24,823 bases of DNA from Breznakia sp. PF5-3 (GTDB taxonomy: Bacteria > Bacillota_I > Bacilli_A > Erysipelotrichales > Erysipelotrichaceae): NCBI RefSeq assembly GCF_029504745.1, contig NZ_JAQFIQ010000034.1:1-24823 (forward strand). Direction: 5' to 3'. Position 1 is the stretch's first letter. Every line of letters begins with the position of its first letter. Positions 2,405 to 24,823 of the stretch are shown piece after piece. Both the position numbers and the translations under genes were made by a program. Under the pieces are notes generated by a model, which searched no databases, had not been told where the DNA came from, and saw nothing but the letters and a program-made list of their open reading frames with translations.

Positions 2405-2536
2405 AAAAAAACACCTCCGTGAGGCGTAGCAAAGTAATCTTACAATAAGATCAGACTCCCTACGCTAGTATTAACTAGATCAGGTCATAAGGGACTGTAT
2501 ACACATCTCAGCCATTTCTGGCGCCCCTGTCTTGAC
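2405..2536 (-). promoter_or_regulatory. TPP (THI-box) riboswitch with an SD-sequestering expression platform
   Basis: The minus strand reads AGGGGCGCC-agaaat-GGCTGAGA-...-GTCCCTTATGACCTGATCTAGTTAATACTAGCGTAGGGA, which matches the THI-box core (GGGGUGC / CUGAGA / ACCUGAUCUGGAUAAUGCCAGCGUAGGGA). Downstream, CTACGC can pair with the aptamer GCGTAG, and CCTC can pair with the GGAGG RBS. Confidence 0.9.
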
Positions 2537-2542
2537 TTACAC

Positions 2543-6811: not shown

Positions 6812-7815
6812 TTCAAGGTTAATGCAATAGATGATTGCAATAACCTTGAAAATACAATATTGAATTTAGTCAACGTATTTCCTTGCTAGAAGCTGCAGAA
6901 CTTTTAAATGTAAACAGTTCAACAATCTATAGAGAAATTATGCAGCATAGAATTAAACAAGCATACAAGCAAAACCAGTATTACCATAGTAAGGACCACC
7001 AAAGTCGTCTAAATTGTCCGTTTACAGAAAAATTCCCGTATACTTGCAATAATTGTGAAAAGTATCCGAGATGTACAAAAACAAGGTTTAAATATGATGC
7101 TTATAGTGCCAATGAAATAGCTAGGAAGGAATTAAAAAACTCAAGAAGTAAACCTTCTCTATCAAATGCTGATATCAAAAAATTAGATAAAAAGATATCT
7201 CCACGTGTATTACAAGGACAGTCTTTATATCATATACTTCAAAGTGATAAGACGATTTTAAAATCTGAATCCACAATACGTCGTTATATTGATCAAACAC
7301 TTCTTACATGCAGAAACATTGATTTACCTAGAAGCTGCAAATCTGTGAACAGTTGTATTCGAAATCTCATTCAAAAATTACAACAGCTTTATCATAGAAT
7401 TTTCTTTGATTGCATTCTCACAGATAATGGGTCAGAATTCAAAAATTTGCACAATGAAGAACAAGACTTAGAGACTGGAGAACAATTCTTTAAACTTTTC
7501 TTCTGTGATCCTTACTCATCATTTCAAAAAGGAGGATGTGAACGCAATCATGAATTATTTCGATATATCCATAAAAAAAAAGAAAACCTTCGACAATCTA
7601 ACTCAAGAAGATATATCTGAAGCGTTTTCTCATATCAATTCTTAAACAGGAAATCACTAAAGGGACGATCACCATATCAAGCCTTTAGTAAAAAGTTTGG
7701 CATAAAGTCAGAGATTCTTGGTATAAAAAGAATTGATCCAAAAGATGTAAAATTGAAAAAATAAATAACAATTTCGCACCTAAGACACAACTTATTCCAT
7801 TGCAATAAGGTTGAA
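6812..7815 (+). mobile_element. Decayed IS30-family insertion sequence (candidate ends only)
   Basis: It contains the transposase pseudogene. ttcaaggttaatgcaat (6812-6828) and attgcaataaccttgaa (6834-6850) form an inverted pair at the left. attgcaataaggttgaa (7799-7815) recurs at the right, 15/17 identical to 6834-6850. The true IR boundaries are uncertain. Confidence 0.5.
6883..7764 (+). pseudogene. IS30-family transposase pseudogene
   Basis: HTH (LNVNSSTIYREI), a Cys-rich region, IDLPR, LTDNGSEF and DPYSSFQKGGCERNHELFR are IS30-like. The N-terminus is missing (no ATG). The catalytic core between IDLPR and LTDNGSEF is far too short. The frame breaks at the A9 run (7573-7581). The remaining C-terminus is split over two other frames with in-frame stops (KTFDNLTQEDISEAFSHINS*, then SLKGRSPYQAFSKKFGIKSEILGIKRIDPKDVKLKK*). 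Confidence 0.8.
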
Positions 7816-8003: not shown

Positions 8004-8034
8004 AAAATCGCGGAGAGGTTATTTCCGCGATTTT
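8004..8034 (-). terminator. Rho-independent terminator closing the surface-protein operon
   Basis: 11-bp stem aaaatcgcgga (8004-8014) / tccgcgatttt (8024-8034). On the minus strand it is followed by ttttgttgttt. It lies 80 nt after the last CDS. Confidence 0.7.
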
Positions 8035-8113
8035 ACTCTGATTTTTCATTTTATATTGGAACTAAAAAATTCAGATTTTGCTATGTTCGTTTATATTAAG
8101 ATAATTTATACAT

Positions 8114-8248
8114 TTATTCCTTATAAAATCGTTCTATTATTTCTTGGTCATCTTTTCGTCTATTCTTATTTGCGACTAAATATAAGTAACATGATATTAC
8201 TGTAAACACCAAAATAATCATCGCAATAATATCATACCAACAAATCAT
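8114..8248 (-). CDS. Small single-pass membrane peptide (44 aa), translationally coupled to the upstream gene
   Basis: MICWYDIIAMIILVFTVISCYLYLVANKNRRKDDQEIIERFYKE. AAGGAGG lies 8 nt upstream of the ATG (8246-8248). The ATG overlaps the TGA of the 359-aa gene as ATGA. The 81-aa track ORF (to 8359) is an unsupported upstream extension. Confidence 0.6.
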   Translation of the reverse strand: MICWYDIIAMIILVFTVISCYLYLVANKNRRKDDQEIIERFYKE

Positions 8249-9324
8249 GCTTGCATCCTCCTTGACTCTTTCAAATGTGTGTTTCGCACTTTTGTATAAC
8301 CTACAGTTGTAGCAATCAACAATGTGCTTATACCTAGTAATATCCAATGCGTATAACAAGTTTGATTTAATACGGAAAGTGATTTCTTAACTTCTGTAAA
8401 CTCGTCTCTATCAAATGAATAAACCTTATAGTTTTCATCATTTTTTAATTTATCAATCTCTTTCAGTCTTGCTATGATTGAATCATAACGATTTTCACCA
8501 GACAGACTACTTTCCTTTTTTAGTGTGAAACTGTACTCTTTTCGTCTAACTGTGTCTAAAATTTTCTCAACTTCTTTCGATCCTATTTCATTTATCACCT
8601 TGTCTACCACTTCTCTATCAAGATTCACTTGATTCCCTTGGTTTCCACTTTCAGGAATATTAGGATAATTAGGACTTATCGAAGCAGACTGTTTTTTCCC
8701 AGCTACAATCTGAATAGTTTCTATTGTCCACCAAATTGTTGATATATCATTCTCGTCATACCCATCATGTGAGAGCATAAGCTCTCCATCAATCATTGAG
8801 GTCATATTAAAATCACCAAAAGTAAAGGCTATATTTGTTCCGCTCGTACTTGTGTCTACGTTACGAATTCGAAACTTAATTTTAGCGACAATACCCCCAC
8901 TCTTGTTTCCAGTACCTGGATCTCTTTTTTCACTAACAAACCGAATTTTCCCTTTCTTTCCATTAGCATTTTGAGACATATTTGACCATCCAGTATTTTT
9001 TAACTCAGCACACATAGAAGAATTCACTTCACTGAAACTACTGTATAACTCCAAACTATTGTAATCATATGTGATACTCTCCATGAAAGATACTGCATCT
9101 GTATTCGCAGGAAGTATTATATTAACTTGTATAATATTCCCATTTTGATAATGCATTACACCATTTTCCTCATACGGTTGCGCACCACCCCCAACATACT
9201 CAATCGTATGATGCAAAGTTCTCGACACTTGATTTGATGTCACTTTATTTTGAGCATTCATGCTACCATTTTCCATCCAAAACAGCAGTCCAACCATAAC
9301 CAATAATAATATATTCTTTTTCAT
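8245..9324 (-). CDS. Secreted, C-terminally membrane-anchored protein with a cohesin-like N-terminal module
   Basis: Signal peptide MKKNILLLVMVGLLFWMENGSMNA. Residues about 35-205 are paralogous to the N-terminal modules of the 1053-aa and 534-aa proteins (NGxIIxVxxxLP...YDxxxLxL...GGxxAKIxFxI...GTxIxFxF). C-terminal TM HWILLGISTLLIATTVGY followed by a basic tail. Confidence 0.75.
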   Translation of the reverse strand: MKKNILLLVMVGLLFWMENGSMNAQNKVTSNQVSRTLHHTIEYVGGGAQPYEENGVMHYQNGNIIQVNIILPANTDAVSFMESITYDYNSLELYSSFSEVNSSMCAELKNTGWSNMSQNANGKKGKIRFVSEKRDPGTGNKSGGIVAKIKFRIRNVDTSTSGTNIAFTFGDFNMTSMIDGELMLSHDGYDENDISTIWWTIETIQIVAGKKQSASISPNYPNIPESGNQGNQVNLDREVVDKVINEIGSKEVEKILDTVRRKEYSFTLKKESSLSGENRYDSIIARLKEIDKLKNDENYKVYSFDRDEFTEVKKSLSVLNQTCYTHWILLGISTLLIATTVGYTKVRNTHLKESRRMQA

Positions 9325-9360
9325 AATAAATAAACAAATCCTTTCTTAATACATAACCCT

Positions 9361-12300
9361 CTATAAATTAACTCCTGCTGGAACCTTGACATAAGGAGGT
9401 TCATCGCTAGGATTCATTAAGTGATAGTTAATTCTCGCTACATCATATGAATCTATAATTCCATTTCCGTTCGCATCTGATAATAGAAGTACTAACTCTG
9501 TTTGTGAATCTTCATTCATTATGTAGTAACTAAATCTAGCTTTATCATATGAATCAACCATTCCATTTTCATTGTAATCAAATAACATAACATCTCTTGT
9601 TTTTTGAACAACACTGATTGTAACTGTTTTTTCAACATAACTACTACCTGTTCCATAACTATATGTAATGTTGTAATCTCCTAAAACACCATTTTTAATA
9701 TTGTTTAAGTTGCCATTAGAAATAGATACAGTTGGAGCCGCAGTCGTTCCATCCGCAAATACTACTTCTGCTTCATTAAACGGAATTAAATCTTCTGCTT
9801 TTGTAATTTTCTTTGCATCATCATTTGTAATTTCACCATCATTTGCTTCTAATGCAACTTTTCCATCTGGTGATATTACAGCTTCATCTGAAACAACTGT
9901 GATTTTTACTGTTTTTTCAACATAACCATCACCTGTTCCATATGTATACATAACATCGTAAGAACCCAATGTTCCTTTTTTGATATCCAACCATTCATTA
10001 TTTGTCACTGTAACATTTGGTGTAGCTGTGCTACCATCAAACATTGTCACTAATGCTTCGTTATAAGTGGATAAATCTGTTTTTGCTGATAATGCTTTTG
10101 CTTGACTTACTGTAATATGTTTGTCTTTTGCATATAAACTTGCTTTTTCATTTTCAGAAACTTCAGACCCATCTTTAATTACTGTTAATTTCACCTTTTT
10201 TAATAAAGTACTTGCAGGTGTAGGATATGAATATGTAACATTATATGTTCCTAAAGCACCATCTAGAACATCTAACCATTCACCTGTAGTAACATTTACA
10301 TTTGGTGTAGGAGTTGTTCCATCTAGCATCATAACAACAGCTTTATTAATTGGAATTAAATCTGCTTTAGCTCTTAATGCTTTTGCATCTTTTTGGAAAA
10401 TAAATCCATCTTTTGCAGATAAGCTTCCGTATTCATCAGTTGCTGCATCATCATCGATAACATTTACTCTAAAAGTTTCAGTAACTTGTTTATCACCTGT
10501 TCCATATGTATATGCAATTTCATATGTTCCAATTGTTCCTAGTTTAATTGATGCAAAATCTAACGTTGTTACACTAGGAGTAGGATTTGTTCCATCCATT
10601 GCTGTTACTTTTACTTTATTAATACCTATTAAGTCTTCCTTAGCTACTAATGCTCTTGCTTGTGTTTGTGTAATTTGAGCATTTTCCCCTTCAATTTGAT
10701 GCGCTTTGTCTTTTGCAATTTCTAAAGTTACAGTTTTGCTAACCGCATCATCACCACTTCCATATGAGAACACTATAGTATAATCACCTATTACACCCTT
10801 TTTAATATTTGTCCAATCCGACACACTAATTTGTGGAGTGTATGTATTTCCATCTGAATCTGTAACAAGTGCATTTGCTAAATCAATCAAATCACTTTGA
10901 CTAACTAAAGCTTTAGCTTCACTTTCAGACAATTCAATATCATCTGCTGATAGACTATATTTTTCATTCTTAGAAACTTCATCGTTATCTCCAATAACGG
11001 TGATTTTAACTTTAAGATCCGTTTCATTCACACCAGAACCATAAGCATAATACACATCATATCCACCTTTATTACCACTTCTGATTTCTGTCCAATTGTT
11101 TGCTGATACTGATGCATCAGGATTCGCAGTTGTACCATCGGCTAAATATACAATTGCTTTATTGTATGGACGAAGCTCATTACGATTAGTTAAATTTTTC
11201 GCAATGGATTCTTTTATAAATCCCGATTCTGCATATACTGCGAATTTTCCATCTGGAGAAATTTCTGATCCATCTGGAACAACCACCACGTTAACAGTTT
11301 TTTCTGCTAACCCTTGGCCACTACCATACTTATAAGTGACAGGATAAGCACCAATTTTTCCTGTTTTCAATGTTGAAAATTGACTACATACAACACTTGG
11401 AACTGCACTTGTCCCATCGCTCTTTGTAACTTTAGCACTATTTAAATTAATCAACTGTGAAGTGCTTGATAATGCTTTAGCTTCACTTTGTGTAATAATT
11501 TTATCTTTTGCATAAACTGCATTATTTCCGTCTGGAGAAATTGTACTTCCATCTTCAATAACATTTAACTTAACTGTTTTAGAATCTGATAAACCTGCAT
11601 CACTATACGAATATGTAACTGTATAAGCTCCTAAAGTTCCCGATTTAATTGCAGCTAAATTTGATGCTGTTGCAGTTAAATTCAAAGGCGTTCCATCTCC
11701 CAATTCAGCAACTACTTTATTAGTTGCTTTTAAATCCATTGCTGTATTTATAAGCTTTGCATCACTTTGTGTAATAAAGCCGTCTTTTGCATTAAAGTTA
11801 ACACTTGGTGACTTTGCCATTACAGTTACGCTTGGTAAGTCACAAGACATTGTATTGATCTTATCATTTATATCATATCCTGGTGTTAACCAGTTGAAAT
11901 CAATATCTACTGCATCATAATTTTTAAAATCAAAAGTTATTGGTGTTCCTGCATCTGTTTCAACACCATTATTTATCTTGAAATATATTTTTGCAATCGC
12001 TCCACCTTCATTAATAGGTACATCTGTTTTATATGTAGATGAACGTAATAATATATATGAATGCGTACTCGAAACTGAATGAATCCCTACCAAGTTAGAC
12101 CAGCTACTTGCTTTGAAGTTCGAATCTAAAGACGCCAAAATATCATCAGAGGTTGAAATTAATTGAACCTTTGTAGGATCATAATGAACTTCTTCTTTTA
12201 AAGAAATTGCATAATTATCTACTGGTAAAGATAATCTAACTTCAAGAATACTTCCATTTCTATAGTATGTTGTCCCTCCTTCATTATAACTTGGAGCAGA

Positions 12301-12480
12301 AACTCCATAGCCAGTTCCATCATTCCAAGTCACTGTATTGTTCATAACAATCGGACCATAAACTGATACGCCATCACCCACAATTGCGCTAACATTCAAT
12401 AACGAAGATGGCAAAATGCATGTAATTGCTAAAGCTATAGCAAAAAACATCTTATTTAATTTGAATATATTTTTTTTCAT
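9361..12480 (-). CDS. Large secreted protein: cohesin-like module, 8 Ig-like (Big_3-like) repeats, C-terminal dockerin-like module
   Basis: I start at ATG 12480 (MKKNIFKLNKMFFAIALAITCILPSSLLNVSA, RBS GAAAGGA). The track start at 12522 adds 14 residues. There is no membrane anchor. See the repeat and dockerin features. Confidence 0.85.
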   Translation of the reverse strand: MKKNIFKLNKMFFAIALAITCILPSSLLNVSAIVGDGVSVYGPIVMNNTVTWNDGTGYGVSAPSYNEGGTTYYRNGSILEVRLSLPVDNYAISLKEEVHYDPTKVQLISTSDDILASLDSNFKASSWSNLVGIHSVSSTHSYILLRSSTYKTDVPINEGGAIAKIYFKINNGVETDAGTPITFDFKNYDAVDIDFNWLTPGYDINDKINTMSCDLPSVTVMAKSPSVNFNAKDGFITQSDAKLINTAMDLKATNKVVAELGDGTPLNLTATASNLAAIKSGTLGAYTVTYSYSDAGLSDSKTVKLNVIEDGSTISPDGNNAVYAKDKIITQSEAKALSSTSQLINLNSAKVTKSDGTSAVPSVVCSQFSTLKTGKIGAYPVTYKYGSGQGLAEKTVNVVVVPDGSEISPDGKFAVYAESGFIKESIAKNLTNRNELRPYNKAIVYLADGTTANPDASVSANNWTEIRSGNKGGYDVYYAYGSGVNETDLKVKITVIGDNDEVSKNEKYSLSADDIELSESEAKALVSQSDLIDLANALVTDSDGNTYTPQISVSDWTNIKKGVIGDYTIVFSYGSGDDAVSKTVTLEIAKDKAHQIEGENAQITQTQARALVAKEDLIGINKVKVTAMDGTNPTPSVTTLDFASIKLGTIGTYEIAYTYGTGDKQVTETFRVNVIDDDAATDEYGSLSAKDGFIFQKDAKALRAKADLIPINKAVVMMLDGTTPTPNVNVTTGEWLDVLDGALGTYNVTYSYPTPASTLLKKVKLTVIKDGSEVSENEKASLYAKDKHITVSQAKALSAKTDLSTYNEALVTMFDGSTATPNVTVTNNEWLDIKKGTLGSYDVMYTYGTGDGYVEKTVKITVVSDEAVISPDGKVALEANDGEITNDDAKKITKAEDLIPFNEAEVVFADGTTAAPTVSISNGNLNNIKNGVLGDYNITYSYGTGSSYVEKTVTISVVQKTRDVMLFDYNENGMVDSYDKARFSYYIMNEDSQTELVLLLSDANGNGIIDSYDVARINYHLMNPSDEPPYVKVPAGVNL
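9412..9579 (-). other. Dockerin-like module (two EF-hand-type Ca-binding loops)
   Basis: DYNENGMVDSYD-KARFSYYIM and DANGNGIIDSYD-VARINYHLM, 34 aa apart. Both loops have D/N at positions 1, 3, 5, 9 and 12, as in type I dockerin duplicated segments. Confidence 0.7.
9595..11799 (-). repeat. Eight tandem protein-level repeats of about 93 aa (Big_3 / bacterial Ig-like)
   Basis: Recurrent pattern AKD-x-I-x-x-S/T-x-AKAL-...-DGT-x-x-x-P-x-V-...-G-x-x-G-x-Y-x-V/I-x-Y-x-Y-G-x-G-...-K-x-V-x-I/V-x-V. The repeats are diverged (roughly 30-40% identity by eye), so they are not DNA-level repeats. Confidence 0.75.
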
Positions 12481-12544
12481 ATTATCCTTTCTAAATCGAC
12501 AAGCAAGAAAAGATGCCTTCACACCTTTTCTTTATTTATCTTTT

Positions 12545-14101
12545 CTATTTACTACTTGATTTAACTTTTTTAACACCAAATCCCATCGCTACCATTGACA
12601 TCAATGCTGTAAACATCCATGCAATAGTATTTGTAGTATCTGCTGTTCCAACACCAGTAGAACCATCTCCCGCTCCAGCAGTAGATGCTGCAGAAATTAC
12701 TGAATCTTTACTTCCATCATTTCCGTTTCCACTGTTATTACCATTGTTCCCACTATTATTTGATCCATTTATTTTTATTAGACCTTTCACAATGTAATTC
12801 TCTTTAGTAGCACTTAATTTATTCCATTCATTTACATCGCTACCATTATATTTTGTAATTACGCGATTACCATCGCTATCATAAGATATAATTGGCATTA
12901 CCAATTCATAATTGACACCAAATGTCTGATCACCAATTAATTTACCATCACTATCTACCTTATATTTTTCCGTATTTCCATTCAAAGCAACACCTTCAAC
13001 CATAAATGTTGATCCATCATTACATGATACCGTTACCTTAAATGCATCATTTACTGCATCTTGTAATTCTTTTTTCATATCATCTTCAGAAGTACCAGCA
13101 TCAAACGTAAACTCTTTTCCTGTTTTATCTACTTTTGTAATTGTATATGTTCTTTCTGTAACTGTTACTGTTGCTGTAGCCGTTGTTGTTTTTCCATAAT
13201 CATCTGTAATTGAATATGTATATGTGTATGTTCCAGCTTCTGGTTGATGTTTCGTGAATACTCCATCTCCTCCAGAAATTGTTACATTTTCTTTACCGAC
13301 TGTATTTCCTTGGCTATCTTTAACTGACGAAATTAAACTACTAGGGTCAAACACATCACCTTCATAAATTGTTTTTGTAGCTGTTTCTAAGCTAATGCTA
13401 GGTGAAGTTTCATTTGCTTTTGGTTTTTTCACAACAATTGAGAATGGGTCACATTCACAGAACATTGATAACTTATCTGCTGGATCAAAACCTAATGTCA
13501 AATAATCAAAATTTGCATCAATAGCATCAAAGTATGGTGATGTAAATGTTATTGTTGTTCCCTCCTCAGTGGCAACTCCTTGGTTAATTTTGAAATAAAT
13601 TTTACACAACTTTCCACCTTCATAATTAGGTGTACAAGTCCTTGATGCTGCTTGGATCCTTATCATACTTGTTGTTGCGTCAATTGGGTACCCATTACAA
13701 AGCATTTCAAAATTATCTTTGTAAAAGCTACTTGGCATCGTTGCTGTAACATCAGTATACGATGATACTAATGTTAGTTTCGTTGAATCATAACGTATCT
13801 CATTCATTGTACTGATTGTACTATGATTATCTGGCAATACAACTGCCACCTCAATAATACTTCCATCTTGAAAATAAGTTACCCCATCTTCTACATAAGA
13901 TGATGGTGATACACCATATCCCGCAGAACCATCTGCCCATGTTACTGAGTGCGTAGCTTTAAAAGGTGGGGCAAGTGTACTCACTTGCTGGTCTGCGTGC
14001 GCTTTGCTACGTGAACCCTCAATAATAAGTCCAGTTCCAACAAGTGCTACAATAAGCATACATATGAAACTAACTCTAAATTTCATTTTCGATTTAATCA
14101 T
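12545..14101 (-). CDS. Secreted, C-terminally anchored protein: cohesin-like module, Ig-like domain, unknown domain, N/G/S-rich linker, TM
   Basis: I start at ATG 14101 (MIKSKMKFRVSFICMLIVALVGTGLIIEGSRSKAHA, RBS AGGAAGGAG). The N-terminal module is paralogous to the two downstream genes. There is one Big_3-like unit (TIYEGDVFDP...GTYTYTYSITDDYGKTTTATATVTV). The tail is NNSGNNGNNSGNGNDGS...TIAWMFTALMSMVAMGFGVKKVKSSSK. Confidence 0.8.
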   Translation of the reverse strand: MIKSKMKFRVSFICMLIVALVGTGLIIEGSRSKAHADQQVSTLAPPFKATHSVTWADGSAGYGVSPSSYVEDGVTYFQDGSIIEVAVVLPDNHSTISTMNEIRYDSTKLTLVSSYTDVTATMPSSFYKDNFEMLCNGYPIDATTSMIRIQAASRTCTPNYEGGKLCKIYFKINQGVATEEGTTITFTSPYFDAIDANFDYLTLGFDPADKLSMFCECDPFSIVVKKPKANETSPSISLETATKTIYEGDVFDPSSLISSVKDSQGNTVGKENVTISGGDGVFTKHQPEAGTYTYTYSITDDYGKTTTATATVTVTERTYTITKVDKTGKEFTFDAGTSEDDMKKELQDAVNDAFKVTVSCNDGSTFMVEGVALNGNTEKYKVDSDGKLIGDQTFGVNYELVMPIISYDSDGNRVITKYNGSDVNEWNKLSATKENYIVKGLIKINGSNNSGNNGNNSGNGNDGSKDSVISAASTAGAGDGSTGVGTADTTNTIAWMFTALMSMVAMGFGVKKVKSSSK

Positions 14102-14156
14102 TTTATTTCTCCTTCCTGTTAAATCTTTACTAAGAACCTTCGTCCTCACAAGTTAT

Positions 14157-14181
14157 GACGAAATGAAAATAAATTACGTTC
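14157..14181 (-). promoter_or_regulatory. ECF-type promoter candidate P2 (GAAC-N17-CGTC) upstream of the surface-protein genes
   Basis: The minus strand reads ataGAACgtaatttattttcatttCGTCata, 56 nt upstream of ATG 14101. It is near-identical in extended sequence to P1. Confidence 0.6.
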
Positions 14182-14275
14182 TATTCAAAATAATCTTTAA
14201 ATAACTCAAATAAAATATGTAATATATTTTTGGCTAACATATTACATATTTTTAACTATATTAATTTAAACCAAA

Positions 14276-15610
14276 TCAATTTGCCTCTACTATATCATTC
14301 ACCTTTATATCAAATGTTGCATAATTTCCAGCATGATCATACAATCGTAATTCGCCATTTGCAAGTATTTGTTCCTGTAATGTTGCAATCATATTTTTAT
14401 CATCAATGCTTTTAAATGAAATTCTTTGATTATTTGAAATAAAATATGATCTAGAAAAATCAACCCCTGCTAAATCATCCATAGCTGTAATTTGTAATAG
14501 CCCATTTCGTTCTTCCATTGAAACTATCTCTGGGAGAGATTTGTCAATATTAGAAATAGCTATATCTTTATGAAAATCTCCGTAAGCAAAATTATATATT
14601 CCATTACCTTTAGCAATAAAGCTTATCGTTTTTTGATCCTCTTTATGTACTTCTATGCTCTCGTTATTAAAGATAATAGAAATCAACTCCTCATTTATAT
14701 CATTATCAAACCTTAAAACAATTTGAAGATTTTTATTAGTCAAATTGTCATCAAAATTTATTTCTTCAAGCTTTGCTTCTTCCAAAATTGCTTCACTTTC
14801 ATTATTTGATGCTTGTAATTCATTAATACCAATATATGCACTTGTTCCACCAATCAGAATACTTGATGAAATAATAGCAACTGTTACAGCTGTTGATACC
14901 CCCTGCACACCTACTGAAGCAATTGTTGTTATCTCTGTAGATTGTGCAATCGTTTTATAAATAAAGTCTTGCTTATCCATACTAAGTGACTCACTTTCTA
15001 CAATTCGTTGAAATAACCGCACTGTTAATGGATTAATCGAAAACATTAAATACCTAGATGGTGTAATTTTTTTATTAGTTAATTCTTTTTGTAAAATCTT
15101 GCGAATTCGATATAATCTACTTTTGATTGTCCCCTCAGGCATATTCATAATTTGGGCAATTTCATCAATATTCAAATCACCAACAAAACGAAGTGTTGCA
15201 ATTCTTTGTGACTCATTTGGCAACTTATTAATTTCTTCTTTAACCTCTAAAAAAAGTTCATTTCGCACCATTTGTTCTTCTGTGCTAGCATCATCATTTG
15301 AATATACATCTTCAAAAAGAACTTCATTTCTTTCAGAATATTTAACATTTCTCCGATATATATCTAGGCTGCAATTATAAGTTATCCTAAAAACCCAGGA
15401 GTTAAATGCTCCTGTTTCTTTTACATTTCCACGGTTTTTTATAATCTTTATAAATGTTTCTTGCACTACTTCCTCAGCGTCTGCACTATTATGCAAAACA
15501 GAGAATGCCATATAATGAATTTTATTTTGATAATTCCTATATATTTCAGGAAAAACCGTATCATCTCCATCTAGAAATTGTCGTATTATCTTTTCCTTTA
15601 ATTTTGACAT
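14276..15610 (-). CDS. ECF-type sigma-70 family factor fused to a TM segment and a C-terminal extracytoplasmic domain
   Basis: Region 2 (EEVVQETFIKIIKN...FNSWVFRITYNCSLDIYRR) and region 4 (LPNESQRIATLRFVGDLNIDEIAQIMNMPEGTIKSRLYRIRKIL). A hydrophobic stretch covers aa about 227-262. The about 150-aa C-terminal domain is paralogous to that of CDS 16251..16898. Confidence 0.85.
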   Translation of the reverse strand: MSKLKEKIIRQFLDGDDTVFPEIYRNYQNKIHYMAFSVLHNSADAEEVVQETFIKIIKNRGNVKETGAFNSWVFRITYNCSLDIYRRNVKYSERNEVLFEDVYSNDDASTEEQMVRNELFLEVKEEINKLPNESQRIATLRFVGDLNIDEIAQIMNMPEGTIKSRLYRIRKILQKELTNKKITPSRYLMFSINPLTVRLFQRIVESESLSMDKQDFIYKTIAQSTEITTIASVGVQGVSTAVTVAIISSSILIGGTSAYIGINELQASNNESEAILEEAKLEEINFDDNLTNKNLQIVLRFDNDINEELISIIFNNESIEVHKEDQKTISFIAKGNGIYNFAYGDFHKDIAISNIDKSLPEIVSMEERNGLLQITAMDDLAGVDFSRSYFISNNQRISFKSIDDKNMIATLQEQILANGELRLYDHAGNYATFDIKVNDIVEAN

Positions 15611-15632
15611 ATTTTGCCCTCTCTATACATAT

Positions 15633-15657
15633 GACGTCAACCAATTTATATACGTTT
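15633..15657 (-). promoter_or_regulatory. ECF-type promoter candidate P3 (AAAC-N17-CGTC) directly upstream of the sigma-fusion gene
   Basis: The minus strand reads tcaAAACgtatataaattggttgaCGTCata, 23 nt upstream of ATG 15610. Confidence 0.5.
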
Positions 15658-15667
15658 TGAATTTATA

Positions 15668-16243
15668 TCATTTACCATTCCCAAAAGAATTAAATGGATA
15701 TAGAATAATAATCCCTCTTGAAATAATATTTTTTGCTTTAATCGCTCCAAAAGAACGTGAATCACTAGAGTAAGGGCGATTATCACCCAATACAAAATAT
15801 TCATCTTCTTTCAAAGAAACAGGACCAAAATCCTTCGTAAAAACTGATGATGTTTTAAGATAGTTCTGTTTATATTGCGCATCTAAAAACGGTTCTTCTA
15901 CTTCTATCCCATCTACATACAGTTTGTCATTCATATAGAAAATCGTTTCTCCAGGTAAACCAACCACTCTTTTCACTAATTCTATATCTTCACCTTTTCT
16001 ATTATTTGTATCTTTTATGATTACAATTTCAAAACGCTTTATATCTTTAATATTAGAAAATAATTTATTACTAACGCCATACTCACCAGCTTTTAATGTA
16101 GGATACATACTATCACCATAAATTTCAACTTGATGAAAAATAAATCTTGTAATTACAAAAATCAAAATCAGAAAAATTATTAGTACTTTTATCATAATGA
16201 TATTCCAGTACTTGATTTTATCTTTATCATCAGTTTCTCTCAT
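15668..16243 (-). CDS. lepB: Type I signal peptidase (S26 family, LepB/SipS-type)
   Basis: N-terminal TM, then GDSMYPTL (catalytic Ser box), VKRVVGLPGE (Lys box) and GDNRPYSSDSR. Confidence 0.9.
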   Translation of the reverse strand: MRETDDKDKIKYWNIIMIKVLIIFLILIFVITRFIFHQVEIYGDSMYPTLKAGEYGVSNKLFSNIKDIKRFEIVIIKDTNNRKGEDIELVKRVVGLPGETIFYMNDKLYVDGIEVEEPFLDAQYKQNYLKTSSVFTKDFGPVSLKEDEYFVLGDNRPYSSDSRSFGAIKAKNIISRGIIILYPFNSFGNGK

Positions 16244-16250
16244 TATAAGT

Positions 16251-16898
16251 TTATTCTATATCCTCTACCCGTATATCATAAGATGCATAGTTACCAGCTT
16301 TATCATATAACATCAAGGTAGCATCCTTCTCTAACGCTTCTTTAATTACAGCAATATCTTGTTTGCTTTTCATGATAGTAATTTTTTCATCATCAACTTT
16401 AATATGTGACTTCTTATAATCAATCCCACTACCTTTATCAGTTACTGTTAATGTCAATAAGCCAGACGAATCCTTATTAATACTTTTCAATACAGGCCCA
16501 TCTTTATCAATATTATCGATTTTTATCGTTTCGCTAAATTTTCCATATGAAATCTTATAATTTCCATTCTTCTGTACTATAAAATGAAGAACATCATCTT
16601 CTTTTTTTACTGCTATTTTCTTTTTGTTAGATGTAACGCTCAGCTTTGACTCATCAGCATCTCCGCTAATCATAATTGCCACCTGCACATCAGTATTAGT
16701 CTTTTCTTTTTTATATACGATATTTTCTATGTATGAGGTTGCAACTACCGAATCCTTACTATTTGACATTTCAAATATTGATATTGTTGCAACTAGTACG
16801 ATAACAACACTTAAAGTAACCAATACTATTTTGAGTCTTTTCTTGGATTTATCACTATTTTGAATAAATGTCATAATTTCCTTAATTTTCTTCATCAT
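16251..16898 (-). CDS. Single-pass membrane protein whose ectodomain is paralogous to the sigma-fusion C-terminal domain (anti-sigma-like or co-sensor candidate)
   Basis: TM LKIVLVTLSVVIVLVATISIF. The ectodomain aligns with the sigma-fusion C-terminus (NGNYKISYGKFSETIKIDNIDKDGP...GLLTLTVTD...LMLYDKAGNYASYDIRVEDI against NGIYNFAYGDFHKDIAISNIDKSLP...GLLQITAMD...LRLYDHAGNYATFDIKVNDI). The start may be the second ATG (16895), judging by AGGAGA spacing. Confidence 0.75.
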   Translation of the reverse strand: MMKKIKEIMTFIQNSDKSKKRLKIVLVTLSVVIVLVATISIFEMSNSKDSVVATSYIENIVYKKEKTNTDVQVAIMISGDADESKLSVTSNKKKIAVKKEDDVLHFIVQKNGNYKISYGKFSETIKIDNIDKDGPVLKSINKDSSGLLTLTVTDKGSGIDYKKSHIKVDDEKITIMKSKQDIAVIKEALEKDATLMLYDKAGNYASYDIRVEDIE

Positions 16899-16904
16899 CT
16901 TCTC

Positions 16905-17348
16905 CTACTTACATTTCATTCCCGCTTCACTTAAATTCTTTTTAGCTGTTTCAAGTTTAATTTTATCTTCATCTGCTGACAAAAATTGAACTAGTAAACC
17001 TGACTCTTTCAATTCTTTAATCGTACTATCGTCAATTGCTATCTTAATTGTTTCTTTTAACTCTTTATCTGAAATTTTATACGAGTAGTCTACTCCTTTA
17101 ATTTTTTTATACTGTTTCCCAACCGTTTTAGCTATTTCTTCTAAATCTTCTTTTGAATATAGTTCCTCATCAACTTCAATTTGATTATCATATGTAATCT
17201 TTTGAACCTCTCCATCTTTTGATTCCATTGTCACCGTAGATTCTGGTGTTGTTATATCTTCAAATGTACATACTGTTTCTTTTGTCTTTGATCCGCATGC
17301 TCCTAATAGTAGCACACATGAAAATAGCATTAATATTCTTTTTCTCAT
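16905..17348 (-). CDS. Lipoprotein (YehR/DUF1307-like)
   Basis: Lipobox LLLGAC|GSK after MRKRILMLFSCV. Size and the KGVDYSYKISDKELKETI pattern resemble DUF1307 lipoproteins (visual call). Confidence 0.7.
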   Translation of the reverse strand: MRKRILMLFSCVLLLGACGSKTKETVCTFEDITTPESTVTMESKDGEVQKITYDNQIEVDEELYSKEDLEEIAKTVGKQYKKIKGVDYSYKISDKELKETIKIAIDDSTIKELKESGLLVQFLSADEDKIKLETAKKNLSEAGMKCK

Positions 17349-17409
17349 TTCTCAGTTTCCTTTCTTCATTTATTCAAGCTACAGATATTTCTGCTCACTT
17401 CATAAATAT

Positions 17410-17434
17410 GACGAAAGAAAAATCAATTGCGTTC
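17410..17434 (-). promoter_or_regulatory. ECF-type promoter candidate P1 (GAAC-N17-CGTC) upstream of the lipoprotein to sigma operon
   Basis: The minus strand reads gtaGAACgcaattgatttttctttCGTCata, 62 nt upstream of ATG 17348 and just downstream of terminator 17465-17500. Confidence 0.6.
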
Positions 17435-17464: not shown

Positions 17465-17500
17465 AAAAAAAAGCCAAGAGTATCTTAAATAACTCTTAGC
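17465..17500 (-). terminator. Rho-independent terminator (ends the candidate sRNA/leader)
   Basis: The minus strand reads gctaagagt-tatttaagat-actcttggc (9-bp stem, 1 mismatch) followed by 8 T. Confidence 0.7.
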
Positions 17501-17592
17501 TTTTATATGCAATATGTGGGAGTGAACCTTGATCAATAGTCTAAGCTATAAAGGTTTTTACGAGATCTAAGTCTCAAATGTGAACACTCCCT
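17501..17592 (-). ncRNA. Candidate structured small RNA or cis-leader of unknown class
   Basis: Closing helix GGGAGUG (17591-17585) / CACUCCC (17524-17518) encloses two hairpins, GAGA-CUUAGA-UCUC and AACCUU..AUAG-CUUAGA-CUAU..AAGGUU, with identical hexaloops. An extended -10 (TGaTATACT, 17607-17599) lies about 7 nt upstream of the helix. The terminator follows. Confidence 0.3.
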
Positions 17593-17667
17593 AATTAAAG
17601 TATATCACATTCCCTCACACATTTGCGTAAGTCTTATGTTTTATTAAGATATCTCTTAACTTTATAA

Positions 17668-17696
17668 TACGAAAAAGAATGCCAAATGGCATTCTT
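17668..17696 (-). terminator. Rho-independent terminator of tuf / the str operon
   Basis: Stem aagaatgcc (17675-17683) / ggcattctt (17688-17696) with a 4-nt loop. On the minus strand it is followed by tttttcgtatt. Confidence 0.75.
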
Positions 17697-22158: not shown

Positions 22159-23937
22159 TTATTTCAGATCCATAAAACCCCATATTCCGTTTTTCCTTAC
22201 CATGATTACACCATTTGCTGGTGCACTCAAATCATCATATTTCCCTTGAAAAAGAATATTCCCTTTATTATCCAACAATCCCATTTCATCACCAAGTTTA
22301 AAATATGCATAATTTTTATTTAAAACTTCCATATCATCATAGAGGTTTGATGTTAAGTTTATTCCTTCTTCATTTATTAATTTCCATTTATCTCCTTTAC
22401 GAAGTGCCGCTAATCCATATACTCTTTTAGGACCAGCTACCGTAATATAAACTGTTCTTACTTCATCATATATATTATGACTAATAGGCTTATCATTTCT
22501 AAAAACAATATATTTTTTTGTTTCCTTATAGTCAAACTGTGGATTATCAAACCGATGTGTATCTACCTCAATAATTTCAGTCGTATCTTTTTCTCGAGTT
22601 TGATATAAAACCCATTTTAGTTTTGTATCAAACGAAGTTCCTGTTTCATTAAAATCTTGCATGAGCATATATACTTGTTGTCTATCTGAAAAATAAACAA
22701 CTGGAGGATATGTGCCACCAATTCCACTACATATCCCTTTATCCTCCACTTCAACATCTATTAAATCCACTACATAGTGAATTGCTTCCATAGAATACTC
22801 ATCTTTGGGTGGATATACAAATGCATAAGCATCTTCCCCCAAACATTGACGATATTTTTCTTGCTTCTCAAAAACCACGGTATTGTCAATATCTACAAAT
22901 TTTGACTTGCCATTTTCAGTAAGTAAAAATCCTTTATCATAAAGTGCGATTGGTCGCTCATCAAGATAATGTGAAGGAACAACACGCCATGTATCTTCAT
23001 TCAAAGCAGTTTGCGTATCAATCGGGTGGGGTTGTGTTTCACTTGGCGGATTGATATCAACTGTTTCTTTTTGCTTCAGTTGTTGATTATTAATTAAAAT
23101 ACCTGCTGTTGCCAGTACTGCAACAGCACTAACACCAGCTATAACTTTAGCAACTGTAGCAGTTGCAATCGTCACGCCGGCAATTGTAATCACTCCTGTA
23201 CCCACTGCTGTACCACCTATTGCAGCTAGGGTCGTGGTAGAAACAACTTCAGGAACGATAGTAGAACTTGCTAAATCCTTTAATATATATAAGAAAAGTG
23301 GAATTGGTGCCACACTCCTCAATTTCGTCCCAGTTGATTCTACTTCTTCTACTTTCCGCTTGATTTGCTTCTTGCCATAATTTAATCTGCTTTTTACCGT
23401 ATTTGGTGATATATCTAAGATATCTGCTATTTCATTGATTGATAGTTGTTGATAATAAAACATAAGAATACACATTCTATTTTCTTCACTTAATTCATCA
23501 ATCATATTTGATATAGCTTCTTTCAATTCATTATAATTATATGTTTCTGATGGATTGAACTCTATTTTATCATCTTCAATAAACTCCTCAATATTTTGAT
23601 CATCTTCTGTTGTATCTGTAAAAAGAAACGGCTTTTTTTTCTTTAAATAATCTTTTGCTTTATTGGCAACAATCCTATTTATCCATTGTGGAAACTTATT
23701 ATCATCATCCAATTGTGATAACTTCGAAAATGCTATCACATATGCATCTTGGAGAATATCAAAAACTGTTTGTTCATCACTTACAAACTTCTTTGCTACA
23801 AAATATACATTATTTGAAGTTTGTTCATAAATTTCTTGTATCGCTTTTTGATCTCCGTCCCTAGCCCTACATACATAGTCACTAAGTCCCTCTTCTACGC
23901 TTCTTCTTTTAAAATTAAACACACTCATTACCCACAC
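22159..23937 (-). CDS. Second ECF-type sigma-70 family factor fused to TM segment(s) and a C-terminal WG-repeat domain
   Basis: Region 2 (DILQDAYVIAFSKL...FPQWINRIVANKAKDYLKK) and region 4 (LSEENRMCILMFYYQQLSINEIADILDISPNTVKSRLNYGKKQIKRK). A long Ala/Gly/Thr/Val-rich hydrophobic stretch follows. C-terminal WG-type repeats are present (GDKWKLINEEG, EMGLLDNKGN, NGIWGFMDLK). The start is ambiguous between GTG 23937 and ATG 23928. Confidence 0.8.
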   Translation of the reverse strand: MWVMSVFNFKRRSVEEGLSDYVCRARDGDQKAIQEIYEQTSNNVYFVAKKFVSDEQTVFDILQDAYVIAFSKLSQLDDDNKFPQWINRIVANKAKDYLKKKKPFLFTDTTEDDQNIEEFIEDDKIEFNPSETYNYNELKEAISNMIDELSEENRMCILMFYYQQLSINEIADILDISPNTVKSRLNYGKKQIKRKVEEVESTGTKLRSVAPIPLFLYILKDLASSTIVPEVVSTTTLAAIGGTAVGTGVITIAGVTIATATVAKVIAGVSAVAVLATAGILINNQQLKQKETVDINPPSETQPHPIDTQTALNEDTWRVVPSHYLDERPIALYDKGFLLTENGKSKFVDIDNTVVFEKQEKYRQCLGEDAYAFVYPPKDEYSMEAIHYVVDLIDVEVEDKGICSGIGGTYPPVVYFSDRQQVYMLMQDFNETGTSFDTKLKWVLYQTREKDTTEIIEVDTHRFDNPQFDYKETKKYIVFRNDKPISHNIYDEVRTVYITVAGPKRVYGLAALRKGDKWKLINEEGINLTSNLYDDMEVLNKNYAYFKLGDEMGLLDNKGNILFQGKYDDLSAPANGVIMVRKNGIWGFMDLK

Positions 23938-24730: not shown

Positions 24731-24823
24731 ATCGAGTAGGAGGTAACTGATTAATTCAGTTACCGACCTCTCACACCACCGTACGTACGGTTCCGTATAC
24801 GGCGGTTCAGTATATTTTAACGG
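24731..24823 (-). mobile_element. 3' end of a group II intron (domains V and VI, 3' splice site), truncated by the window edge
   Basis: The minus strand shows a DV-like 32-nt hairpin (24806-24775): ACCGCCGUA-UACG-GAAC-CGUA-CG(bulge)-UACGGUGGU, with a conserved G-U wobble and a CGC triad position. DVI follows: GAGAGG-UC-GGUAACUGA-AUUAA-UCAGUUACC-U-CCU-A(bulged, 24737)-CUC. The intron ends ...CUCGAU at 24731, 6 nt after the bulged A, like Ll.LtrB ...CCUCCCUACUUCAC. Confidence 0.65.

Follow-up and report, generated by a model that had tools for sequence, protein, structure and literature searches.

The insect-gut bacterium Breznakia sp. PF5-3 (Erysipelotrichaceae) carries a cassette of eight genes that encode, among others, three secreted proteins with what appear to be divergent cohesin modules, one of which also ends in a dockerin, together with a membrane-tethered sigma factor and a signal peptidase. 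The cassette occupies positions 8004-17434 of the whole 24.8-kb contig stretch that was analyzed (NZ_JAQFIQ010000034.1, assembly GCF_029504745.1), referred to here as the window, and its genes, as judged from the list of open reading frames (ORFs) and from Pfam and NCBIfam matches, all lie on the minus strand in the same orientation. A preliminary description of this DNA had counted nine co-oriented genes; all of those listed are present on that strand and in that place, and their number is eight. Cohesin and dockerin modules are widespread outside cellulose degraders, where their function is largely unknown, and the cassette is a small, conserved instance of such use, apparently under its own regulation, in Erysipelotrichaceae of the gut.

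Read in the direction of transcription (all coordinates minus strand), the cassette begins with an extracytoplasmic function (ECF)-type promoter, P1 (GAAC-N17-CGTC, 17410-17434), followed by genes for a 147-aa DUF1307 lipoprotein with the lipobox LLGAC (16905-17348; PF06998, E 3e-9, 37.5 bits against a Pfam gathering threshold (GA) of 28.3), a 215-aa single-pass membrane protein (16251-16898; transmembrane residues 18-47), a 191-aa type I signal peptidase of the bacterial P-type (15668-16243; Peptidase_S26, E 6e-43) and a 444-aa membrane-tethered ECF sigma factor (14276-15610). An AT-rich, perfect 11-bp hairpin followed by a T run, read from the sequence (14215-14249), lies between the sigma gene and a second ECF-type promoter, P2 (GAAC-N17-CGTC, 14157-14181). 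P2 precedes the genes for an anchored cohesin protein of 518 aa (12545-14101), an adaptor-like cohesin/dockerin protein of 1039 aa (9361-12480), a second anchored cohesin protein of 359 aa (8245-9324) and a 44-aa membrane peptide (8114-8248), the start of which overlaps the stop of the 359-aa gene by 4 nt (ATGA). A conserved hairpin, GAAAAGGTGT..CATCTTTTC, separates the 518-aa and 1039-aa genes (12507-12530), and a 13-bp palindromic terminator, recognized from its sequence and assigned to neither strand, closes this structural operon (8004-8034).

The two longer paralogs had been described as 534 and 1053 aa, which are the lengths of the maximal ORFs (extending to 14149 and 12522, respectively). 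The real products likely start at the ATGs at 14101 and 12480 and comprise 518 and 1039 aa, respectively, because the ECF promoter and the conserved hairpin fall inside the longer ORFs and good ribosome-binding sites are found at both shorter ATGs. The boundaries of the cassette were correctly placed between the intrinsic terminator of tuf (17675-17696, minus strand), which has a 9-bp GC-containing stem followed by a T run, and an IS30-like ORF (6883-7620, plus strand). This ORF matches an N-terminal helix-turn-helix and only positions 174-251 of the transposase model (E 9e-15, below the NCBIfam cutoff), and it reads as a truncated, degenerate relic. The term island, taken in the sense of horizontal transfer, is not borne out; the G+C content of the cassette (0.29-0.35) matches that of its flanks.

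Modules of the three secreted proteins and their conservation

The N-terminal modules of the three secreted proteins are clearly paralogous by sequence, far beyond chance: in phmmer searches the module of the 534-aa ORF matched the 1053-aa protein at 3.8e-40 and the 359-aa protein at 3.2e-16. Each protein has a single module (nt 13415-13954, 11803-12360 and 8680-9228 for the 518-, 1039- and 359-aa proteins, respectively). The Pfam Cohesin model (PF00963) reaches the 359-aa protein at E 0.0019 with 18.8 bits, below its GA of 24.1 bits, and no match to this model was obtained with the single sequences of the 518-aa and 1039-aa proteins; across the family, 11 of 26 members are matched at E up to 0.1. 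When a profile of the module was run by exhaustive HMMER search against 1.84 billion representative proteins, only 20 clusters were found at E below 1e-20. These are confined to Breznakia, Thomasclavelia and Coprobacillaceae, and they fall into three length classes of ~355, ~515 and ~1035 aa that mirror the triplet in the window. Word-index protein searches are insensitive here, the 359-aa query returning itself only and the three-module alignment not even the window proteins, and two scans of JGI metagenome contigs yielded no relative.

Several comparisons connect this narrow family with cohesins. Five of the six next, weak matches of the profile carry a Pfam Cohesin domain above GA, five cohesin chains rank first when the family profile is compared with PDB sequences, and alignment by hhalign to Pfam-verified cohesins gave a probability of 96.5% (E 9e-10), a test that is not fully independent since these targets had been found by the module profile. 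A 2896-aa protein with HYR_4C repeats (P0012) was discarded as a relative because it matched the profile through a repeat only. The AlphaFold2 (AF2) model of the 359-aa protein, built from a 26-sequence alignment, has a predicted local distance difference test score (pLDDT) above 90 over residues 31-215, and in a Foldseek search with this model cohesin entries account for 49 of the 50 top PDB matches (E 4e-6 to 6e-4, template modeling score by target 0.5-0.68), with non-cellulosomal cohesins of Clostridium perfringens and OlpC and SdbA of Clostridium thermocellum at the top. Identity between the window modules and solved cohesins is 10-18%, and at ~185 aa the modules are bigger than classical cohesins. 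The modeled fold, which fits the nine-stranded, jelly-roll beta-sandwich typical of cohesins, and the profile matches strongly support a divergent cohesin as the identity of the N-terminal module common to the three proteins, in keeping with the label cohesin-like that had been given to it.

The dockerin is identified more directly. Dockerin_1 (PF00404) matches the C-terminus of the 1039-aa protein (nt 9418-9582) with 26.6 bits, above the GA of 22.9, and this segment contains two DxNxNGxxDxxD loops, DYNENGMVDSYD and DANGNGIIDSYD, situated 34 residues apart. It aligns to the PDB double-dockerin entry 8x39, and the dockerin of another protein encoded in the same genome (P0038) aligns to those of 1ohz and 5nrm. 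By sequence, then, the 1039-aa protein ends in a canonical type I dockerin with a duplicated EF-hand-like loop and, as had been described, it has no membrane anchor. Its order of signal peptide, cohesin, eight tandem immunoglobulin (Ig)-like repeats of ~93 aa and dockerin is, on the same basis, the architecture of an adaptor scaffoldin. Of the Pfam models that had been proposed for checking the cassette, matches were obtained for Dockerin_1, Big_3, Sigma70_r2/r4_2, Peptidase_S26 and DUF1307, and the match to the Cohesin model was under its GA.

That the other two proteins end in a membrane or sorting-type anchor is strongly supported. The 518-aa protein consists of a signal peptide, the cohesin, a Big_3 Ig domain, an unknown domain, a G/N/S-rich spacer, a GTADTT motif, a transmembrane helix and a basic tail, while the 359-aa protein has a signal peptide, the cohesin, a linker, a small helical region, a CYTHW motif, a C-terminal helix and a tail. 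Of the two transmembrane anchors proposed earlier, that of the 518-aa protein stands; the helix of the 359-aa protein is moderately hydrophobic, below the Kyte-Doolittle threshold, and is modeled by AF2 as a long helix of residues 324-358. The C-terminus of the 518-aa protein (nt 12545-12700, minus strand) and those of its orthologs P0004, P0007 and P0010 share the G/N/S-rich spacer, the motif (G/S/A)T(G/A)D(T/Y)(T/S), ~20 hydrophobic residues and the basic tail, which resembles a sorting signal yet is not LPXTG; a Thomasclavelia ortholog has NVKTGD, which we take to be reminiscent of the NVQTG sortase motif of Clostridioides difficile. In the 355-aa class, CY(T/R/K)H(W/Y) is kept at the outer edge of the C-terminal helix (nt 8114-8330, minus strand), and the coupled peptide of 44-50 aa contains C(W/G/R)YD and a second conserved Cys. 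These motifs hint at a membrane-proximal complex or a disulfide.

The suggestion that the sigma-fusion, signal peptidase and cohesin genes belong together is borne out by five other loci in Breznakia and Thomasclavelia assemblies (L005, L006, L008, L018 and L019), where the gene order of the cassette is kept; Thomasclavelia and Breznakia contigs were also what a scan with the sensor domain of the sigma factor recovered. L005 (Thomasclavelia sp. STF2_103) has all eight gene types in the same order, and seven of the eight are present in L006, a second locus in the same Breznakia genome, in L008 (Breznakia VLC_068), and in L018 and L019, taken from an ENA and a Logan assembly, respectively, for which the order was judged by gene length and Pfam calls. 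Missing from these four is the 215-aa paralog, the only ortholog of which is in L005, and they usually have an extra dockerin protein of 1100-1670 aa encoded after the sigma gene. The DUF1307 lipoprotein occurs in all six cassette loci, at a variable position. Each of the five other loci has an ortholog of the 44-aa peptide (47-50 aa) at the same position, and the three that were scored by phmmer gave E values from 1.5e-15 to 2.3e-5. Both the lipoprotein and the peptide are probably membrane partners of the anchors.

Dockerin recognition residues vary by cassette but agree between dockerin proteins that share a cassette. The recognition pair is SY in the window cassette and in P0037 and P0038, VI in the two dockerin proteins that the second cassette (L006) encodes, and I/V-x-DK in Thomasclavelia. 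The -35 flank likewise reads AGAACG in the window cassette versus GGAACC in the second. Because the second cassette differs in both promoter flank and recognition pair, the two cassettes of this genome are probably orthogonal systems and, if so, would provide new matched sigma/promoter and cohesin/dockerin parts for synthetic biology. P0037 is encoded remotely from the cassette in a sister strain (L010, GCA_029504795.1) and comprises 1693 aa with Ig-like repeats and the SY dockerin; its gene sits between that of a 1121-aa protein with no confident domain and genes for teichoic-acid export and synthesis (ABC2_membrane, ABC_tran, Glyphos_transf; L010 1-3366 and 9006-13359). The giant dockerin proteins contain, by Pfam, Ig-like domains and a dockerin only, and neither a glycoside hydrolase (GH) nor a carbohydrate-binding module (CBM) was detected by Pfam in the cassette proteins or in the recovered dockerin proteins P0028-P0039, a set whose recovery was biased to repeat-containing relatives.

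The tethered sigma factor, its candidate promoters and the signal peptidase

The sigma factor combines sigma2 and sigma4 (residues 1-180), a linker of ~60 aa, a transmembrane helix (~229-262) and two extracellular Ig-like beta-sandwich domains, and this fusion of an ECF domain, a transmembrane helix and an extracytoplasmic domain in one chain is the same in all orthologs. It matches Sigma70_r2, r4_2 and ECF models, with 96 bits to TIGR02937 (cutoff 42.9), and its best match is SigW-like. The presence of sigma2 and sigma4 only, with a GAAC/CGT-type promoter ahead of its own operon, places it by sequence among the ECF (group 4) sigma factors. No anti-sigma domain family was detected by Pfam in the ~60-aa linker. 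The transmembrane helices of the sigma fusions are rich in Gly, Ser and Thr, a composition that would be compatible with intramembrane cleavage. Residues 258-440 are 34% identical to the extracytoplasmic part of the 215-aa protein (BLASTP, E 5e-31), which is, judging by this alignment, a paralog of the sensor domain. A two-sequence AF2 model of moderate confidence (pLDDT 63) shows two beta-sandwich domains that match generic tandem Ig folds only.

Fusions of this kind are not restricted to cohesin cassettes. A paralogous sigma fusion with the same Ig-like sensor is found in L006 (15317-23096), where it is followed by genes for Flg_new, LRR and pectate-lyase-like (Pectate_lyase_5) proteins, and another in L013 (9155-13005), a Paraclostridium metagenome-assembled genome, is followed by that of a 774-aa Bact_surface_Ig-like protein; L013 has GAAC-type -35 boxes and different -10 boxes. 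Weak sensor-domain matches in L014-L017 were rejected as sigma fusions, being in fact Ig-like domains of other surface proteins. The window itself contains a second membrane-tethered ECF sigma factor of 592 aa (22159-23937, minus strand), with Sigma70_r2, r4_2, hydrophobic segments at ~237-284 and a C-terminal WG_beta_rep, encoded just upstream of rpsL-rpsG-fusA-tuf. The organism therefore uses sigma fusions repeatedly.

A promoter motif, GAAC-N16/17-CGTC, was derived by comparing intergenic regions across the loci. It occurs twice in the window when both strands are searched (0.17 expected; 0 of 100 shuffles reached two), and both occurrences are intergenic, on the minus strand and co-oriented with the cassette. 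These are P1, which heads the lipoprotein/215-aa/peptidase/sigma operon, and P2, which heads the structural operon, and their extended motif is near-identical to that ahead of the remotely encoded P0037 in L010. Three genes are preceded by the motif in both L006 and L008, namely those for sigma, the ~515-aa protein and the DUF1307 lipoprotein; a giant dockerin gene follows it in L005, and in L018 and L019 a CGCC variant is found ahead of the sigma and ~515-aa genes. The cassette had been called sigma-driven, and the two unique ECF-type promoters ahead of both operons strengthen that view, from which we infer that P1 and P2 are driven by the cassette sigma factor.

The hairpin at 14215-14249 is terminator-like in sequence and would separate the regulatory from the structural unit. 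Another hairpin, GAAAAGGTGT..ACATCTTTTC, is kept in sequence between the ~515-aa and ~1035-aa genes of five of the six cassettes (that of the window, L006 at ~9955-9985, L008, L018 and L019), the flanking proteins of which are only 40-50% identical. It may act in attenuation, in mRNA processing or in mRNA stability and thereby set the ratio of subunits.

The signal peptidase matches the bacterial model TIGR02227 with 136 bits, compared with 18.8 bits to the archaeal/endoplasmic reticulum (ER)-type model TIGR02228 (cutoff 51.9). It contains the motifs GDSMYPT (Ser), VKRVVG (Lys) and GDNRPYSSDSR, which are conserved in the four orthologs compared, the Ser and Lys motifs being intact in the window protein and in three orthologs, and these features suggest an active type I (S26A) enzyme. 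Its gene is directly upstream of the sigma gene in all six loci. Signal peptidases are the site-1 proteases for RsiV and RsiP (PMC4183432, PMC8844934), and by analogy it is plausible that the cassette enzyme cleaves the tethered sigma factor in this capacity. Instead or in addition, it may be a dedicated maturase of the cassette pre-proteins. The former role is favored because the ECF promoter falls between the S26 and sigma genes in L006, L008, L018 and L019, where the peptidase consequently lies outside the autoregulated unit, and the latter because the S26 gene tracks the cohesin set, not the sigma family.

Proposed surface assembly and alternative readings

In the reading that we prefer, to which we assign a probability of roughly 0.6, the cassette is a self-regulated, non-cellulosomal cohesin-dockerin system that builds a surface layer of very long, adhesin-like Ig-repeat proteins. 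At basal expression the sigma fusion would sit in the membrane and expose its two Ig-like domains at the cell exterior. A surface signal would lead to a site-1 cut just outside the Gly/Ser-rich transmembrane helix, for which the cassette signal peptidase is a candidate by analogy to RsiV and RsiP, and intramembrane proteolysis would then release the sigma domain. The free sigma factor would activate P1, giving positive feedback, P2, with the cohesin and dockerin genes, and the distant genes for dockerin proteins of 1560-1690 aa. At the surface, the anchored cohesins would hold the 1039-aa adaptor and the giant proteins by their dockerins, and the adaptor's own cohesin would capture a further dockerin, thereby extending the assembly outward. 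The cassette does have its own sigma factor, peptidase, cohesins and dockerin, as the earlier term self-contained implied, and this term fits less well with the remote dockerin protein of the sister strain, which has the same promoter and dockerin type. A more specific proposal, to which we give a low probability, is that of a 'cohesin-dockerin pilus', a new type of sortase-independent filament in which adaptors polymerize non-covalently from anchored bases and display giant adhesins, controlled by a tethered one-component sigma factor that is cut by its own signal peptidase, with two copies per cell that are orthogonal in promoter, sigma factor and cohesin-dockerin specificity.

Several observations weigh against the surface-layer reading. 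The window cohesins are under the Pfam gathering score (18.8 versus 24.1 bits), and every cohesin-dockerin interaction is deduced from domain identity. The -3/-1 residues after the transmembrane helix of the sigma factor are only loosely signal peptidase-like and are not conserved between cassette types. Where a homolog of the sigma fusion occurs without cohesins (in L013 and, as a second fusion, in L006), no S26 gene is next to it, and the peptidase is therefore linked no less to the cohesin set than to sigma. Finally, the promoter link to a remote dockerin gene rests on the sister strain (P0037) and not on P0038 of the same genome.

Other assemblies could be built from the same parts. In the 1039-aa class there is always one N-terminal cohesin and one C-terminal dockerin with a rigid-looking array of eight Ig repeats in between, and such a protein might join head to tail, the dockerin of one copy on the cohesin of the next, into a non-covalent, sortase-independent, pilus-like surface fiber with the anchored cohesins as its base and perhaps the giant dockerin proteins as its cap. 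This would accommodate the three diverged cohesins versus essentially one dockerin type per cassette, as well as the conserved hairpin after the anchor gene, which suggests tuned stoichiometry. We regard the fiber as unlikely, however, since the self-recognition that it would require between the 1039-aa cohesin and its own dockerin is hypothetical and the cohesin and dockerin of known adaptor scaffoldins differ in specificity. The cassette might alternatively represent a minimal, cellulosome-like enzyme scaffold that encodes scaffoldins only, comparable to the sca cluster of Ruminococcus flavefaciens, with dockerin-bearing carbohydrate-active enzymes encoded elsewhere. Cellulosome producers are known to have gene clusters that encode scaffoldins only, the modules were confirmed as cohesins and a dockerin, and one or more dockerin proteins of the same type are encoded outside the cassette. 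This appears quite unlikely given that the recovered dockerin proteins P0028-P0039 have Ig-like repeats only and no GH or CBM (in a recovery biased to repeat-containing relatives), that a single cohesin per protein makes no multi-enzyme scaffold and that the family is restricted to about 20 clusters in Breznakia, Thomasclavelia and Coprobacillaceae; to our knowledge, Breznakia species are not known as cellulose degraders.

The low scores of the modules, which are below the Pfam Cohesin threshold and 10-18% identical to solved cohesins, and their size of ~185 aa, exceeding that of classical cohesins, leave room for a reading in which they are cohesin-fold beta-sandwiches that bind carbohydrate or host structures rather than dockerins. 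The dockerin would then be a Ca2+-dependent stabilizing or wall-binding module and the cassette a set of ECF-regulated adhesins. Against this, cohesin-class modules and dockerins co-occur strictly in the six cassettes, and the recognition residues switch per cassette yet match within one, as expected of a specific protein-protein pair, so that a non-binding role seems very unlikely.

The surface-layer system as proposed shares features with several known systems, and no description of this gene combination was found in full-text literature searches, in line with the preliminary description, which had not recognized it as a described system. Closest in their modules are the cellulosomal anchoring and adaptor scaffoldins (C. 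thermocellum OlpC and SdbA, Acetivibrio cellulolyticus ScaA/ScaB and R. flavefaciens sca), which have the cohesin fold (4dh2 of OlpC, 2bm3 of SdbA and 3l8q of ScaA/B are among the best matches), a type I-like dockerin with duplicated Ca2+ loops, cohesin and dockerin in one protein, cell-attached cohesins and clustered genes. In contrast, the cassette has no glycoside hydrolase, CBM or multi-cohesin scaffoldin, its cargo would be Ig-repeat proteins of 1000-1700 aa, it anchors by a C-terminal transmembrane or sorting-like signal where the scaffoldins use SLH domains or LPXTG, it has its own ECF sigma factor and signal peptidase, and its host is a member of the Erysipelotrichaceae that is not known to degrade cellulose. 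A true cellulosome was rejected, as it had been at the outset, there being no GH or CBM in the cassette or the recovered dockerin proteins and a single cohesin per protein. The top Foldseek matches, the cohesin-dockerin pairs of C. perfringens glycosidases and toxins (2jh2, 2vo8, 2w1n, 2o4e), are a precedent for use outside cellulose degradation in host-associated Bacillota. These modules, however, are within secreted enzymes and link enzymes, with no dedicated operon, anchored cohesins, or sigma or peptidase partner.

The regulation recalls, by analogy, SigI/RsgI of C. thermocellum, where an alternative sigma factor coupled to a membrane protein with an extracellular sensor drives cohesin and dockerin genes. 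The parts are different, as had been noted: the cassette sigma factor matches ECF models and not SigI, it is fused to a transmembrane helix and sensor with no separate RsgI, and the sensor consists of two Ig-like domains and not a CBM, and membership in the SigI/RsgI group was therefore rejected. An ECF domain, a C-terminal transmembrane helix and an extracytoplasmic domain in one chain are also found in the sigma/anti-sigma fusions (IutY of Pseudomonas putida, ECF243; groups ECF48/52/53, e.g. SCO4117). IutY is activated by regulated intramembrane proteolysis (PMC8999054), a route that may by analogy be shared here. Unlike IutY-type fusions, the cassette protein is from another phylum, has no detected zinc-finger or FecR-like anti-sigma domain and a linker of only ~60 aa, and has a conserved signal peptidase neighbor. 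With RsiV (sigmaV) and RsiP (sigmaP), for which a type I signal peptidase initiates the proteolysis by which an ECF sigma factor is released in Bacillota (PMC4183432, PMC8844934), the S26 gene abutting the sigma gene in six of six loci offers a parallel, although the candidate substrate here would be the sigma fusion itself. Signal peptidases are emerging as participants in ECF activation, and this conserved pairing would bring sigma fusions within that role.

The tapA-sipW-tasA operon of Bacillus subtilis similarly contains a dedicated signal peptidase with the secreted surface-fiber proteins that it matures and an anchoring protein. SipW is of the ER/archaeal type, whereas the cassette enzyme is of the bacterial P-type and no TasA/camelysin domain occurs in the cassette; a SipW/TasA-type operon was rejected on these grounds (18.8 bits to the archaeal/ER-type model, cutoff 51.9; no match to Peptidase_M73 or TasA). 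A sortase pilus or LPXTG system was rejected as well, there being no sortase gene in the six loci and the 515-aa class having a (G/S)TGDTT-type motif, a transmembrane helix and a basic tail with no LPXTG.

RNA elements at and beyond the cassette boundary

Between the tuf terminator and P1, the spacer at 17473-17625 (minus strand) has a minimum free energy of -53.4 kcal/mol (z -4.6), and none of 200 shuffles was equally stable. A second hairpin followed by U8, seen from sequence and folding (17473-17500, minus strand), ends this structured intergenic RNA of ~150-200 nt and would insulate the cassette against read-through from tuf. A search of Rfam gave no family match in the cassette or in the tuf-lipoprotein spacer, and the spacer RNA may represent a small RNA or what is left of a leader. 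Elsewhere in the window, a thiamine pyrophosphate (TPP) riboswitch (71 bits) lies at 2440-2538 (minus strand) upstream of the ORF at 1886-2404, and a match to the catalytic domain of group II introns (48 bits) is found at 24731-24807 (minus strand), at the extreme end of the contig.

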